Origin: a virus
Lineage: Duplodnaviria; Heunggongvirae; Uroviricota; Caudoviricetes
Reading direction: 5' to 3' (one strand)
DNA length: 64,000 nt
Virus record (IMG/VR): IMGVR_UViG_2740892119_000002
In this document: piece by piece, positions 5,002 through 52,680 of the stretch
Layout: each line of letters begins with the position of its first letter
How positions within the stretch are numbered: position 1 is the stretch's first letter
The notes under the pieces: generated by a model
Told to the model about the DNA's origin: nothing
The model's database searches: none
What the model saw: only the letters and a program-made list of their open reading frames with translations
Made by a program: the position numbers and the translations under genes

Positions 5002-5382
5002 CTACTCCGCAGAACCATACAATCTACGTAACGTGTCGGCGACAGAAGATACAGATATCTCGCCAGTCGCAGCGCCTACAGTAAGGTCTGCCAGTTCAGG
5101 TGAATCAAATACCTGCACCCCGTTACGGCGTAGAAATAGCAGCGCACTGTTTAGCGCGGTACGCTTATTGGCATCATTGAATATATGCCCTCTCGCCGTA
5201 GCCACCAGGTAGGTGGCGGAGACTTCGAAAAGGTCGGTGATCTCTTCGTAGGCAACTCTGGCCTGAACTCTCCCGATAATGGCCTCTGCCCTACCCGGAT
5301 CTGACATTCCCGGCAGGCCGCCGTAGCGGCTTATATTCGCATCATGAAGCGCAATAAGTTCTTCCGGTGATATATGCCTCAT
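5002..5382 (-). CDS. doc: Doc toxin (Fic-fold kinase, death on curing)
   Basis: 126 aa [22 protein letters not shown]... recognised as P1 Doc; overlaps the phd stop. Confidence 0.95.
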
Positions 5383-5603
5383 TATCGGTTAACCAGTTCC
5401 TTGTTGGTGGAGTCCAGGGTGTCAAACAGGGATGCAAATTCAGCATCCAGCGCCGCTTTTTTGTAGGCTTCGAAAGTAGCCTTGCTGACAATTACTGCTG
5501 GCTCACGGCCTCTGCGGGTGATTTCAACCTCTTCCCCGGCTTCAACATTGTTGAGCACTTCAGAAAGGTTGCCACGCGCGGTACGGAAGTTAATGGATTG
5601 CAT
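5382..5603 (-). CDS. phd: Phd antitoxin (prevent host death)
   Basis: [32 protein letters not shown]..., 73 aa from the second Met; classic phd-doc overlap. Confidence 0.9.
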
Positions 5604-46225: not shown

Positions 46226-46807
46226 ATGGCACCTATTCCTTATGGGGTTTACAGCCAGGCTGACGGTGTATCGCCATTTCTGAAAGTTACTTTAACGAAC
46301 TCTCAGTACCAGGTTACCGGATATATCAGCCAGGGGGCGGCAATGAACATGGCCCAGAATTGGGAAGCGCCGTTTACCGGTATGTCCATGGGATCTGTTT
46401 CTGGTGCTCTGGGTGGTTTTGTGCAAGTAGGTACTGAAACAACGTCGGTTGCCCGTTGGAATAGCTTAATGGTTTGGGAAGGGGGGACTCCGCCGACGTT
46501 CACGCTGCCTGTAACTTTCATTGCTTTGAACAATCCATTCATTGAAGTTTCAGGCGCTATCGCCGCGTTGACAGCCATGATTAGCCCGGAACTAAAAGCG
46601 GCCAATGTTGGTGGTCGAATCCCGGAACGCGTGACGCTAAACATTGGTCGCCGGATCAACATCACCGATGTCGCCATCCAGGACTTAAGTTTTGATCTCG
46701 ATGCGCCAAGGGACAGTAATGGATATTTCCTGAAAAACACCGTCAACCTCCAGTTGACCGGTTCTTCGATATATAACAGCTCCGATATTATTCGGGCGTT
46801 CCAGTAA
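46226..46807 (+). CDS. tail component (193 aa)
   Basis: ORF in the late operon. Confidence 0.55.
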   Translation: MAPIPYGVYSQADGVSPFLKVTLTNSQYQVTGYISQGAAMNMAQNWEAPFTGMSMGSVSGALGGFVQVGTETTSVARWNSLMVWEGGTPPTFTLPVTFIALNNPFIEVSGAIAALTAMISPELKAANVGGRIPERVTLNIGRRINITDVAIQDLSFDLDAPRDSNGYFLKNTVNLQLTGSSIYNSSDIIRAFQ

Positions 46808-46818
46808 AAGGATTTTAT

Positions 46819-47328
46819 ATGGGGCACAATAACACTAAGGGAAACCGTAAATTTATTAAGGGCCGCTATACTGCCAACGCGGCCAAAGGCGAACGACTGG
46901 TATCTTCTGAATTCCAGCTCACTTTTGCAGGCTATGAAGATATCAGTGTACTTGTTCGTACGTCGCAAATCCCTGAAATGACTCGCGAGGATGTGGAGGA
47001 CTATGGTCCGAATGGTGTGAAGTTCAACCAGCACGGACCAATTCGAAACTCTGGGGAAATCCAGGTCCAGTGCGTGGAGACTATCGAAGGCGATATTCTT
47101 CAGTTCATTAAGGATCGCATTGCGGCGAAGGACTATGTTGATATCACGATGGCTGCTACCCCTGAATCCAAATCTTCCGGGGTTAACGCTGTGACAAAAG
47201 CTGCTACAACAATTGAAATGTTGGACTGCAAAATCTACAGTGATGCAATCGACTTTAGTACCGAAGATGTGACTGCCGCTGTGCGCCCGTCACTTCGTAT
47301 CGTCTACAACTGGATTGAGTGGGATTAA
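46819..47328 (+). CDS. tail tube-like protein (169 aa)
   Basis: Size and beta-rich composition similar to myovirus tube proteins. Confidence 0.5.
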   Translation: MGHNNTKGNRKFIKGRYTANAAKGERLVSSEFQLTFAGYEDISVLVRTSQIPEMTREDVEDYGPNGVKFNQHGPIRNSGEIQVQCVETIEGDILQFIKDRIAAKDYVDITMAATPESKSSGVNAVTKAATTIEMLDCKIYSDAIDFSTEDVTAAVRPSLRIVYNWIEWD

Positions 47329-47347
47329 GAGTCATCCCTTGTATTTT

Positions 47348-47374
47348 AAAGCTCCTTCGGGAGCTTTTTTATTT
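47348..47374 (+). terminator. rho-independent terminator AAGCTCCTTCGGGAGCTT plus T-run
   Basis: Perfect 7-bp stem with TTCG loop followed by TTTTTTATTT. Confidence 0.8.
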
Positions 47375-47444
47375 GGAGAGGAAAGGGTGCATTGAGGATA
47401 CCTGACACACGAAGAGTGGCGGAGATCTCTCCCCGCCAGGTCTC

Positions 47445-47600
47445 TTACCTTTCAGATTCGTAGGCTGTGAAGACAGTGACCTCCGTCTGGCTGGTTCGGA
47501 TTCGTACCTCGCAGAGGTCTTTCCTCGTTACCAGTGCCGTCACAATGACGGTTAAACAGATGACGATCAGAGCGATTAACATCGCTTTTTGCTGCTTCAT
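47445..47600 (-). CDS. hok: Hok/Gef-family type I toxin (51 aa): MKQQKAMLIALIVICLTVIVTALVTRKDLCEVRIRTSQTEVTVFTAYESER
   Basis: Manual translation; strong match to Hok (LTRKSLCEIRYRDG..EVAAFMAYES); below the ORF-track cutoff. Confidence 0.8.
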   Translation of the reverse strand: MKQQKAMLIALIVICLTVIVTALVTRKDLCEVRIRTSQTEVTVFTAYESER

Positions 47601-47658
47601 AGCCTGCTTCTCCTTGACCTTTTGGTCGGTAAGAGGCTAATCTACGTATGCTAAGCAT
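47452..47658 (-). CDS. mok-like overlapping reading frame upstream of and overlapping hok
   Basis: 68-aa ORF in a different frame covering the hok leader, as in hok/mok/sok loci. Confidence 0.35.
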   Translation of the reverse strand: MLSIRRLASYRPKGQGEAGYEAAKSDVNRSDRHLFNRHCDGTGNEERPLRGTNPNQPDGGHCLHSLRI

Positions 47659-47894
47659 AGATATGGCCTCAGATTAATGTTAAGCGTCTTGCAGGACGCG
47701 TAATGTTATCTGGGGCTTTCTTCTATCTGCTTTTCGGGTAATGCCTGAAGCAGATAGCCTCAAGCACCCGCAGCGATTGTATCAATGTCTGGCTTTTTTT
47801 CTATAGAAATCACCTGGAAGGGTGAATACCCACATCAGAAGAAACGTTGCAGCAAACATGATCCCTAATGGCCAGACCGCGCCAAAGAAAATCC

Positions 47895-49235
47895 ATAGTG
47901 ACTGCTCCCCGCCCTGTCGGGCGAGGCTTCCCACTTCTTAAGCCGCAACCGTCTGTGTGACGGATTTACGCTGGCCTCCATGGGCAGAAACGACGAGTCC
48001 CGCCGCTTGTAATTCCAGTATGCCCTTGCGTTTGATGTTGAGCGCCGCATTGATATCGCGGTCATGTTCAACTCCACACTCTGGACACTGCCAGAAGCGC
48101 TTATGTAATGGCATCTCCGACATTTTGTGACCGCAGCAGTGGCAGGTTTTCGAACTGGCGAACCATTGATCCAGTTTCACCAGATGCACACCTTTCTCTG
48201 TTGCTTTGTATTCCAGTTTTGTGATGAATCCAGACCATCCAGCATCGCCTATCGCACGAGCCAGATGGTGATTTTTCATCATATTTGCCGTTTTCAATGT
48301 CTCGACAATTACCGCTTGGTTTTCGTCAACAATTGCGCGAGATAACTTGTGCTGGAAATCGGCACGGGCACTGGCTACCCGTTCGTGAACGGCTGCAAGT
48401 TGTATTCTGGCTTTGCGCCTGTTTGCGCTCCCTTTTTTCTTACGGGACAGTGCTTTCTGCTTCCGGCGCAGGTTGCGACTTGCATTGATTAGGTGGCGGG
48501 GACTGGCAATTTTATTGCCGTCCGATTTGATGACAAAATGCGCCAGCCCCATATCCAGCCCTGTCACATTTGATATCAGTGCGGGCTTTGCCGGCGCTTC
48601 CATCCCGTCGTCACAGAGTAACGACGCGTAGTATTTCCCGGTTGCGCTGCGGCTCAACGTGATACTTTTCAGCATTCCCGTAATTTCACGATGTAAACGC
48701 GCTTCAATCGGCAAGATTTTCGGTATTTTTATCGCACCATCAAGGACTTTTATGCCAACACAATGATAGCTAGATTGTCTGCCGTGTTTACTTTTAAAGG
48801 TAGGTTTACCTGCTTTCAGTTTCGGATTGAAAAAGTTAGAAAAAGCCACGTCGAGGTTAATTACCGCCTGCTGCAACGCAATAGAATCATATTCTTTAAG
48901 CCATCCATACCGGCGGGATTTCTTCGCCACTGCAAGCAGTGGTTTGAGGTCTTTACGCGGGTTTAAATTTACGCGGTGCCGCTGGTAAGAATGTTTCTTG
49001 ATATGCAGAGCTTTGTTGTACACAAAACGCACTGCACCGAACTGGGCGTTGATAAATTCAGCCTGTTCTGGTGTCGGATAGATGCGTACTTTTGTTGCTC
49101 TTAACATAGTCACCGCTCATTGGTACAGGTTTTTATACTAACACCGTAATAATATTTTTAAAGCCCTTCGGGCTTTTCCGCCTTTCCTCCCCGCCCGCAT
49201 TGGGCGAGGGTTCTCGGCGGTTTTTCGCTGAAAAC
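47895..49235 (-). mobile_element. IS200/IS605-family element carrying only tnpB (no tnpA); subterminal hairpins at both ends
   Basis: CTCCCCGCCC-N5-GGGCGAGG hairpin at 47905-47926 and at about 49187-49210; boundaries approximate. Confidence 0.65.
47938..49113 (-). CDS. tnpB: TnpB, RNA-guided RuvC-like nuclease (OrfB family)
   Basis: 391 aa; C-terminal zinc finger CHCCGH...CPECG; RuvC-like motifs. Confidence 0.85.
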   Translation of the reverse strand: MTMLRATKVRIYPTPEQAEFINAQFGAVRFVYNKALHIKKHSYQRHRVNLNPRKDLKPLLAVAKKSRRYGWLKEYDSIALQQAVINLDVAFSNFFNPKLKAGKPTFKSKHGRQSSYHCVGIKVLDGAIKIPKILPIEARLHREITGMLKSITLSRSATGKYYASLLCDDGMEAPAKPALISNVTGLDMGLAHFVIKSDGNKIASPRHLINASRNLRRKQKALSRKKKGSANRRKARIQLAAVHERVASARADFQHKLSRAIVDENQAVIVETLKTANMMKNHHLARAIGDAGWSGFITKLEYKATEKGVHLVKLDQWFASSKTCHCCGHKMSEMPLHKRFWQCPECGVEHDRDINAALNIKRKGILELQAAGLVVSAHGGQRKSVTQTVAA

Positions 49236-49264
49236 GCCAGGTAACTCCAGATTAGAGCAATCTA

Positions 49265-50110
49265 TCACCCTCTGAATCCTGCCGGTATACCCCATTGTTC
49301 GTTATCTTTATTTTTGGCTAAAACCGCATTAAGAGCTTCGTTTACCGTCATGCAATGCGGCAGATTATCGAAGTTTGATACCCCGCCAATATCAGGAGAA
49401 CGCTTGTTCTTCAGGTAAGCATATTTCCGCGCTGCCGCCTCTACTTTCTGCTTGAACTCATGTTTTTGTGCGCGTTTTTTGGATAACCGCAGATTGTCAG
49501 CCTTTGCTTTTGCCTCAGCGATCCATGAAGTCAATTTTTTGAGTCTGGTCGTTCCGGCACCGCCGGAAACTGATCTTTTTGTTTTTTTAACTTGTGACTT
49601 CTTATTCTTTATTGCCACGTCATCCTGACAGGGGGAGGGGGTATCATTTTGACATGGGGGTGTGGATAAAAAATTAAATAAAGCCAATGTCTTAGCGAGA
49701 ACAGCTTTAACCTTGGTTGCCGCTGAAGAGATCTTTAATTTGCTTTCAATCAGCGCATTTTTGGCTTGTTGTGCGAAGGCCAAAAAGGATGGCGTAAACC
49801 GGTACAGGTTAGCGCGACGTTCACGGTGATCGCCGATAACAATCTCTACAGACAGAATTCCTTTGTTTACAGCTTCACGGAATGCACGAACGACGGTTGA
49901 TTGGCTATAACCAGTTTCTGCCGCGATCAGGCGGTGAGGCTTGTGAATGAAGTATTCACTGGTTGTTGCCGCGAGATTTGCACATTGCGACAGGATATGC
50001 CCGGCGCTACGGGATAGACCGGAGTGTGTTACAAAGCAGGCCAATTCATAGCCAGAAAAAGTAAAATCGCTCATCGTTATACAGCTCAGGAAAGTGACTT
50101 TAGCCAGCAT
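49265..50110 (-). CDS. repL: lytic replication protein RepL
   Basis: 281 aa directly downstream of kilA in the same operon. Confidence 0.8.
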   Translation of the reverse strand: MLAKVTFLSCITMSDFTFSGYELACFVTHSGLSRSAGHILSQCANLAATTSEYFIHKPHRLIAAETGYSQSTVVRAFREAVNKGILSVEIVIGDHRERRANLYRFTPSFLAFAQQAKNALIESKLKISSAATKVKAVLAKTLALFNFLSTPPCQNDTPSPCQDDVAIKNKKSQVKKTKRSVSGGAGTTRLKKLTSWIAEAKAKADNLRLSKKRAQKHEFKQKVEAAARKYAYLKNKRSPDIGGVSNFDNLPHCMTVNEALNAVLAKNKDNEQWGIPAGFRG

Positions 50111-50139
50111 TACAATGCTGGTGGTTCTTACTACGTCTG

Positions 50140-50940
50140 TTAGCGCGTTGCTGCGACAGGTACCAGCACACCAGCATCAAGCAATCGCTTCATCAGCCAC
50201 TGCTGACCTTTGCCGGTTATACGAGTCGTGAAAGAAATCCTGCTTCCATTGCTTGTATCGATCACGGTTTCTTTAAGGGTGAAATACCCACGGGATATGT
50301 ATTCTTGTTTGGGGACGTTCCTGCGTTCACCGGTTGCGATCAGAATTCCGTTATCACGCAACCAGGTGAAGAGATAGTTTTGGCCCAGGCCGAGCACTTT
50401 GGCATAGTTGCCGATTAGAACCCCGCTGGCGGTAGCAACGCGTTCGGCGAATTCGACTTTAGGTGCATCCATAAGCATTTTTTGCTCCAGCCGTTGCTTT
50501 TGCTCTGCCAGGTCGGCAGCCAAACGGAGAGCTTCAGGGAGACTCTGCGGAATAGCAGGTTGTAATCTTCCGGCTCGATAGTCGATAAATGTCTGGTTTA
50601 CCTTCAGCCGAAACGCGGGAGAAATCCAGCCTGCGTACTCCACAGCGAGCAATTCATGGGCAAAAGTGCCGCCGCCACGGCCTTCGAACGAAACTATGCA
50701 ATTCTGCATAGTTTCTTTTTCAAGCTCTTCGATGAGCTGTTTGGCTGACAGCGTTCTTAGCCATTGAGCTGGCGCTTTATGGGCACCGAGTCCGCTCGCT
50801 CTGTGTAGAGCATTAAGGTTGTAACGGCCAGCGCGGTCGGTCGTAATTTCAACACCACAAATAACAGGCAGAGTGGTTGAAGGATCGACATTTTGATGAA
50901 GGTTTGATATATTCATATCCGCATTGAATGTTTGTTGCAT
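50140..50940 (-). CDS. kilA: KilA (KilA-N plus antirepressor C-terminal domain)
   Basis: 266 aa; C-terminal domain paralogous to the Ant C-terminus. Confidence 0.8.
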   Translation of the reverse strand: MQQTFNADMNISNLHQNVDPSTTLPVICGVEITTDRAGRYNLNALHRASGLGAHKAPAQWLRTLSAKQLIEELEKETMQNCIVSFEGRGGGTFAHELLAVEYAGWISPAFRLKVNQTFIDYRAGRLQPAIPQSLPEALRLAADLAEQKQRLEQKMLMDAPKVEFAERVATASGVLIGNYAKVLGLGQNYLFTWLRDNGILIATGERRNVPKQEYISRGYFTLKETVIDTSNGSRISFTTRITGKGQQWLMKRLLDAGVLVPVAATR

Positions 50941-52366: not shown

Positions 52367-52504
52367 AGTTACGGCCTCATTCGTAGGTTTAACAACCTGC
52401 GCCCCGCTGCTAAACGGGTGGCAGGACGTGACGGGGTTAGCAGACTGGCACGAATGAAACCAGCAGGCCGAAGCCTCCCCATCACGCCCCACCATAATTC
52501 GGGC

Positions 52505-52590
52505 GTAACGTGGTTTTACGGACACAAAAATTCCGCAATATCGGATATCTGCGGTTGTCCGCATTCGTATTCAGGCTGCTAAACCCGGTC
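52505..52590 (-). ncRNA. c4: candidate C4 antisense repressor RNA (approximate)
   Basis: Repeated TTTAGCAG-containing segments with complementary copies in the icd/ant leader; operator 90 bp upstream. Confidence 0.35.
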
Positions 52591-52680
52591 GCAGAATTTG
52601 CTACGACGGCGGAACTATAAGCCTGAACGATTAAAAGGTCAATATGATGCGAAAAGATAGCATTCGCGACTTAAAAATAC

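Follow-up and report, generated by a model that had tools for sequence, protein, structure and literature searches.

An intact hok/mok/sok type I toxin-antitoxin module, which almost certainly works by the RNA mechanism described for plasmid R1, lies next to the tail/baseplate gene bplB in the DNA analyzed here, a window of 64,000 nt that corresponds to a P1-like IncY phage-plasmid, a low-copy plasmid prophage. That plasmid addiction is the main role of this module seems to us about an even call, and the combined statement, i.e. an intact module with the R1-type mechanism and an addiction role, is one that we favor by a small degree. The complete locus extends approximately from 47348 to 47803; the interval 47380-47700 given in a first-pass annotation of this DNA is contained in it, but is too narrow. 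The results on protein family, RNA family, locus anatomy and synteny are all in agreement with the reading, given in that annotation, of a type I locus separate from phd-doc.

The toxin gene, hok, occupies positions 47445-47600 of the minus strand (51 codons plus the stop), starts with ATG, has the motif AAGGAG upstream (47615-47610) and encodes MKQQKAMLIALIVICLTVIVTALVTRKDLCEVRIRTSQTEVTVFTAYESER, a product of 51 aa that was recovered from an ORF list with a floor of 20 aa. This product matches the Pfam family HOK_GEF (PF01848) along the entire profile (positions 1-42 of 42), with 73.1 bits against a cut-off of 22 and an E-value of 1.3e-20, and it contains the string of residues quoted in the first-pass annotation, so that the Hok/Gef toxin proposed there is indeed present. 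A hydrophobic stretch at residues 7-24 and a cysteine at position 30 can be read in the sequence of the protein (MKQQKAMLIALIVICLTVIVTALVTRKDLCEV...), which would give it the features that define the Hok/Gef family: a length of around 50 aa, a hydrophobic transmembrane helix at the N-terminus and a conserved Cys towards the C-terminus. None of the curated cut-offs of NCBIfam was reached, the scores being 46.5 vs 73 bits for the Hok subfamily model NF007279 and 36 vs 89 bits for the HokA equivalog NF007290; for this reason the "hokD" label found in RefSeq is to be taken as the name of the closest sequence. The identical sequence is annotated there by PGAP as "type I toxin-antitoxin system toxin HokD".

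For comparative purposes, 80 relatives were collected from IMG/VR and 61 further distinct full-length mRNA regions were obtained (60 from IMG/VR plus that of phage 933W), with 81-100% identity. Disruption of the ORF in homologs had been put forward as the sign of a remnant, and what was found is an ORF intact at 51 aa in all 62 distinct sequences. A chance ORF or a remnant was also ruled out by the E-values for the toxin and the sok region (1e-20 and 2e-25), along with the intactness of all the regulatory elements. As a separate observation, codon 47 of hok is TAC (Tyr47), within CCUACGAA (47457-47464, minus strand), and TACGAA is invariant in the 62 sequences. It has been reported that A-to-I editing by TadA recodes Tyr to Cys in the hokC, hokD and hokE mRNAs (bioRxiv 10.1101/2025.08.07.668861). 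A hairpin resembling that of tRNA-Arg, which would make codon 47 a candidate for such editing, was looked for around the invariant TACG, and no stable one was found, the 19-nt fold having 0 kcal/mol.

The second reading frame, mok, corresponds to the mok-like overlapping frame noticed at first sight. It consists of 68 codons (47452-47658, minus strand) starting with ATG at 47658-47656, with GAGG 7 nt upstream, both within the stretch complementary to Sok; it is out of frame with hok, overlaps nearly all of it and stops 7 nt short of the last base of the hok stop codon. The start in the Sok target and the overlap with hok are as the definition of hok/sok loci needs, and translational coupling between both frames is predicted. 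The 68-aa frame is intact in 10 of 10 P1-type sequences, while in 48 lambdoid-type sequences a 1-nt difference gives rise to a mok of 70 aa that shares the frame of hok (in one of them starting with ATA), and the other four hold only a 19-aa mok frame.

Upstream, a generic sigma-70 scan identified a predicted hok promoter at 47776-47803 (minus strand), with a -35 element TAGAAA (47803-47798), a 16-nt spacer and an extended -10 element TGaTACAAT (47784-47776), which add up to 9 of 12 consensus matches with the TG. Transcription is predicted to start at a G around 47769, where position 1 of the Rfam sok model aligns; the -10 box and the start are conserved with hokW of 933W and the -35 is not. 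The leader would therefore be of 169 nt, from 47769 to the hok AUG at 47600, well below the approximately 290 nt initially estimated. The first 12 nt of the mRNA are the tac box GGGUGCUUGAGG (47758-47769), and the 3' end is the fbi box CCUCAAUGCACCC (47385-47397), exactly where the homology with the hokW locus stops, so that the full-length hok mRNA would comprise 385 nt (47385-47769, minus strand, to the end of the fbi box). Transcription may extend to the hairpin AAAGCUCC-N4-GGAGCUUU at 47348-47367, placed directly after bplB and common to the converging bplB and hok genes. This hairpin is a good terminator on the plus strand, for bplB, and has a weak, poor U-tail on the minus strand, because of which the true 3' end of the hok mRNA is not fixed by the sequence.

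Between hok and the fbi box there is a GC-rich hairpin, GGCGGGGAGAGAUCUCCGCC (47418-47437, minus strand; -16.3 kcal/mol, z = -4.0), which, by analogy with R1, is where processing by 3' exonucleases would be expected to stop. In three relatives from IMG/VR that are otherwise 99% identical (L015, L018 and L023), an insertion sequence that we take to be IS186, given its terminal sequence CATAAGCGCTAACTTAAGGGTTG, is located within this hairpin (around window position 47424) and parts the fbi box from the mRNA. IS186 insertions also adjoin hokC and hokE in K-12.

The antisense gene was identified in the same region. In a scan of the whole window with Rfam, a check that had been suggested beforehand, the sok model RF01794 matched in full (model positions 1-157) over 47769..47595; its score, 114.9 bits, exceeds the gathering score of 59 (E = 2e-25). 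Since this model aligns in the hok-sense direction and its 3' end reaches the start codon of hok, it marks the region and not the strand from which Sok is transcribed. The Sok promoter was read from the sequence, and the gene was placed by alignment with the annotated 71-nt sokW of 933W. The predicted promoter (47614-47643, plus strand) has a -35 element TTGACC (47614-47619), an 18-nt spacer and a -10 element TAATCT (47638-47643), and was not called by the generic sigma-70 scan, its -10 holding only three of the six consensus bases. It would give rise to an RNA of some 71-75 nt (approximately 47650-47724, plus strand) starting with a G around 47650 and consisting of a single-stranded tail at the 5' end, then a long hairpin (47667-47715) and finally a U-rich tail, CUUUCUUCU; its predicted fold has -32.9 kcal/mol and z = -6.0. 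An antisense Sok gene with its own, sub-consensus promoter and a terminator is thus predicted, and both elements whose absence had been considered as an argument against the locus are detectable. The plus strand proposed for Sok agrees with this prediction; the position proposed, 47600-47680, does not, the gene being located around 50 nt to the right. The predicted Sok is complementary to the ribosome-binding site and start codon of mok. Compared with sokW, 62 of 71 nt are identical, and the differences are mostly in the 5' recognition tail, where 6 of the first 17 nt are different.

Folding of the 385-nt RNA (47769-47385) resulted in -153.4 kcal/mol, with a mean of -106.7 in shuffled sequences (z = -7.2) and with its ends paired. 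In this minimum-energy fold, tac and fbi form a 12-bp helix with one bulge. The hairpin that would be the target of Sok (47633-47670, minus strand; -12.6 kcal/mol, z = -3.1) holds the mok Shine-Dalgarno GAGG and the AUG (47670-47656), corresponds to the third hairpin of the Rfam model and has a UUAG loop that fits the YUNR U-turn motif; it is absent from the global minimum-energy fold. When the 3' tail containing fbi was removed, the predicted 5' end refolded, with nt 5-13 now pairing with nt 19-27 (tac with 47743-47751), which is the switch that would be expected from the R1 model. Across the 62 distinct sequences, the pairing of tac with fbi is kept in 99.9% of the cells, all changes being from G-C to G-U, and that of the 3' GC hairpin (helix 17) in 92%, while controls with slid partners drop to 36-44%; the Sok-target hairpin is paired in 94% of the cells. 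These percentages are inflated, the structure tested having been derived from the window sequence itself. Two-sided compensatory changes were observed in the 5' hairpin, in several other helices and in one pair of the 3' GC hairpin, whereas none was found in the tac-fbi helix or the Sok-target hairpin among these 62 close sequences (81-100% identity). The closeness of the relatives makes the covariation support weak, and its absence in the latter two helices neither adds to nor detracts from the predicted structures. Taken together, the comparative folding evidence is supportive rather than decisive. Within the mRNA, variability is highest in the Sok-recognition region (alignment columns 107-131), which would fit a divergence of specificity between loci.

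The current model of hok/sok function comes from the work of Gerdes and colleagues on R1. In the mechanism we propose, the anatomy of the locus is taken from the sequence described above, and the rest from the R1 paradigm and the experiments done with hokW-sokW (PMC8621323). A weak constitutive promoter would produce a stable mRNA of around 385 nt, kept translationally silent in its full-length form by the pairing of the 5' tac with the 3' fbi. Slow 3' trimming down to the GC-rich hairpin would remove fbi, allowing the 5' end to refold, so that both the ribosome site of mok and the hairpin targeted by Sok become exposed. In cells that carry the plasmid, Sok, a short-lived RNA transcribed from the other strand, would pair with the ribosome site and start codon of mok, blocking translation of mok and the coupled translation of hok, and RNase III would cleave the duplex. 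Once the supply of Sok ends, this RNA would decay and the processed mRNA would be translated, with the 51-aa Hok protein inserting in the inner membrane and causing cell death. The most likely outcome would be post-segregational killing, which we rank first among the possible roles and which would stabilize the low-copy plasmid prophage alongside phd-doc.

The surroundings of the locus are those of a P1-like genome. The window carries phd-doc at 5005-5603 (minus strand), 42 kb from hok, in agreement with the first-pass view that the two are separate, and the phd-doc products are 100% and 99% identical to the P1 proteins. The P1 C4 antisense RNA, its a1/b1 targets and three tRNA genes, all expected for a P1-like genome, were located with Rfam at 28598-30824 and 52414-52620 (minus strand). 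In addition, plasmid 3 of Escherichia coli MSB1_8B (NZ_LR890538.1), a 97-kb, IncY, non-mobilisable plasmid, is 100% identical to the window over 46800-50200. The hok locus is flanked by bplB (46819-47328, plus strand) on its left and the lytic replicon gene repL (minus strand) on the other side. Homology with reference P1 (NC_005856) ends at 47370, just past the bplB terminator hairpin, and restarts at 49251, within the C1 operator Orlf and beside repL; between both points NC_005856 has 1,826 bp with pmgF, rlfB and rlfA. The placement initially described, between the tail-operon terminator and an insertion element, in the position where P1 has its rlf genes, turned out to be correct on all counts. 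In P1-like phage-plasmids this site has been published as "variable region 5 (rlfA, rlfB, pmgF)" (PMC9603915), and our literature searches found no paper discussing hok in these elements.

Other features of this segment can be mentioned. The recombination joint with P1 is located at 49228-49270, inside the C1 operator Orlf (Op55), with ATTGCTCTAAT kept and followed by divergent bases. The insertion element is of the IS200/IS605 type (approximately 47898-49227, minus strand), with tnpB and no tnpA, and is annotated as ISEc46 orfB in phage RCS47; it encodes a 391-aa TnpB (47938-49113) and has similar imperfect palindromes, CCCCGCCC-N4/5-GGGCGAGG, at both ends. With respect to the IS-less relative MH422554, 143 bp are replaced by the element. 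A 50-aa ORF at 47782-47934 (minus strand) is the C-terminal remnant, cut by the IS, of a small membrane-protein ORF of around 96 aa, which is intact in IS-less relatives (e.g. L002, 5480-5711), has its stop codon adjoining the hok -10 box and matches no Pfam or NCBIfam model. The remnant is the "hypothetical protein" found beside hokD in many RefSeq records.

The distribution of the locus was analyzed in PLSDB with a 501-bp query, which matched 663 plasmid records; at least 80% of it is held by 415, and 334 are at least 99% identical. Hundreds of P1-like plasmids have the locus at 95-100% identity. At the same coverage of at least 80%, the adjacent pmgG-bplB genes are present in 672 plasmids and the pmgF-rlfB-rlfA segment of reference P1 in 99. 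The hok-type occupant of this site is about four times commoner than the rlf-type one, and laboratory P1 and P7 represent the minority state. As for the proposal that the element had gained a second killing system, a second toxin-antitoxin locus is certainly there, but the gain is not established by these figures (415 hok-type vs 99 rlf-type plasmids), and occupancy counts give no direction by which a gain of hok and a gain of rlf could be told apart. Several deposited "P1" phage genomes also hold the locus, and in one of them the gene is labelled MokW. The bplB-hok junction was found in 200 of the 5,426 E. coli genomes analyzed, all of them complete. Hok loci of Rac, Stx and other lambdoid phages show 87-91% identity with the cassette that extends from the -10 box to fbi (47385-47781).

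In phage RCS47 (L004, 3372-4128), the promoter and leader of hok are retained together with sok and the IS present in the window, with 98.6% identity over window positions 47632-50200, and in place of the hok ORF and 3' end (47371-47631) there is unrelated DNA that contains an ORF of 198 aa. The loss of the hok ORF with sok being kept makes it an antitoxin-only remnant. This case and the IS186 insertions in the 3' hairpin of three relatives indicate that related loci are being inactivated, as would happen if the module were a decaying or neutral passenger, silenced or cross-neutralized by chromosomal Sok homologues and with no selected function in the plasmid. Related hok cassettes are present in most E. 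coli genomes (4,746 of the 5,426), and their chromosomal Sok RNAs might cross-neutralize the plasmid locus, which would also argue against addiction. A passenger seems very improbable to us, however, given that every element of the window copy is intact, that Hok is intact in the complete set of compared sequences and that identity is of at least 99% in so many plasmid records, while the 6 of 17 nt by which the Sok 5' tail differs from that of sokW argue against simple cross-neutralization.

Addiction remains our preferred role, and two others were considered. With the same RNA mechanism, the module could act mainly in the phage life cycle if induction led to the loss of Sok, early membrane damage by Hok and faster lysis. 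This possibility, to which we give appreciably less weight than to addiction, derives from the nearest relative with experimental data, the hokW-sokW locus of the Stx2 prophage Sp5, which speeds lysis and raises phage release: after mitomycin C induction of the hokW-sokW deletion mutant, growth arrest took place around 40 min later and the released phage was halved (PMC8621323). Transcription reading through from the kilA-repL operon, which is controlled by C1, could contribute to the expression of hok and is conceivable, since this operon is on the same strand directly upstream of hok, yet the IS element and the truncated ORF located between repL and hok make it uncertain. Besides, P1 comes with a holin, an antiholin and an endolysin of its own, reference P1 and P7 are able to grow despite lacking hok, and a low-copy plasmid is the classic setting for addiction. 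A more specific version, built by analogy with Sp5, in which hok/sok is wired into the lytic switch instead of being a second addiction system, with induction both drowning out Sok and reading through into hok and with Hok acting as an early accelerator of lysis that damages the membrane, is slightly more doubtful still. If it were true, laboratory P1, with rlfAB-pmgF at this site, would not be a typical model of how natural P1-like elements time their lysis and are maintained.

A main role in defending the lysogen against other phages, by abortive infection or exclusion, would operate if the shut-off of host transcription depleted Sok and freed Hok. R1 hok/sok is cited as lowering T4 plating by 42% and plaque size by around 85% when present in a high-copy plasmid (as cited in PMC8621323), and the variable regions of P1 hold other cargo of the defence type, namely res-mod and sim (PMC9603915). 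That R1 effect is modest and was obtained at high copy number, and in a survey hok was not found enriched in the vicinity of defence systems (bioRxiv 10.1101/2025.08.07.668861); we regard this role as unlikely. In the same report, chromosomal hokA, hokB and hokC are described as lacking post-segregational killing in spite of their full regulatory elements (bioRxiv 10.1101/2025.08.07.668861). Because of this, and of the faster lysis associated with hokW-sokW, the module may act in lysis timing or phage exclusion, although we rank the addiction role first.

The family, the mechanism and the identical allele (as hokD in RefSeq) were already known, and there is experimental work on the nearest relative. 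What our data indicate is that the textbook P1 genome is unrepresentative at the rlf/hok hotspot, most sequenced P1-like plasmids carrying hok/sok there, and that two toxin-antitoxin modules, phd-doc and hok/sok, should be taken into account when the stability of P1-like resistance plasmids is studied. Being plasmid and phage at once, this replicon would also offer a clean system to separate the roles of hok/sok in addiction, help in lysis and defence.

The paradigm of these systems, hok/mok/sok (parB) of R1, is located in a low-copy plasmid and has a leader of around 170 nt, a mok frame that overlaps hok out of frame, tac-fbi pairing, a 3' hairpin and a Sok RNA of about 65-70 nt whose single-stranded 5' tail is complementary to the ribosome site of mok. 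This architecture is shared by the window locus, as is the low-copy plasmid setting. Sequence similarity is limited: identity with R1 Hok is of 40.4% over 52 positions with tblastn and of 22/52 in a global alignment, and the R1 hok/sok nucleotide sequence could not be aligned to the window by megablast. The K-12 toxins are closer, with 47 of 51 residues matching in HokD (94% over 50 aligned positions) and 40 of 50 in HokC (gef). The presence of HokD (relF) and HokC among the closest toxin sequences explains why PGAP names the plasmid gene hokD. Pedersen and Gerdes are said to have described in 1999 that K-12 hokD lost its upstream regulatory region by rearrangement and that hokC is flanked by IS186; in contrast with K-12 hokD, the copy in the window has the full set of promoter, leader, Sok and fbi.

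The locus hokW-mokW-sokW of the Stx2 phages 933W and Sp5 (VT2-Sakai) shows around 87.5% DNA identity over 47385-47781, with 47 of 51 residues of the 933W HokW matching those of the window Hok and with the same tac, fbi, 3' hairpin and Sok terminator. Both differ in that the 70-aa mok of hokW is in frame and constitutes an N-terminally extended Hok, while the window has a separate 68-codon mok, as R1 does; the -35 region and the flanks are unrelated, the sequences of the Sok 5' recognition tail and of the target hairpin are different, and hokW-sokW is found in an integrated lambdoid prophage instead of a plasmid prophage. HokW has been reported to be toxic and to be located in the inner membrane, the hokW and sokW RNAs have both been detected, and sokW expressed from its own promoter neutralizes the toxin, partly via RNase III and Hfq (PMC8621323). 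Judging by its sequence, the locus described here belongs to the HokC/HokD/HokW subgroup, and it appears to have every sequence-level feature of hok/sok systems that was testable in this analysis.
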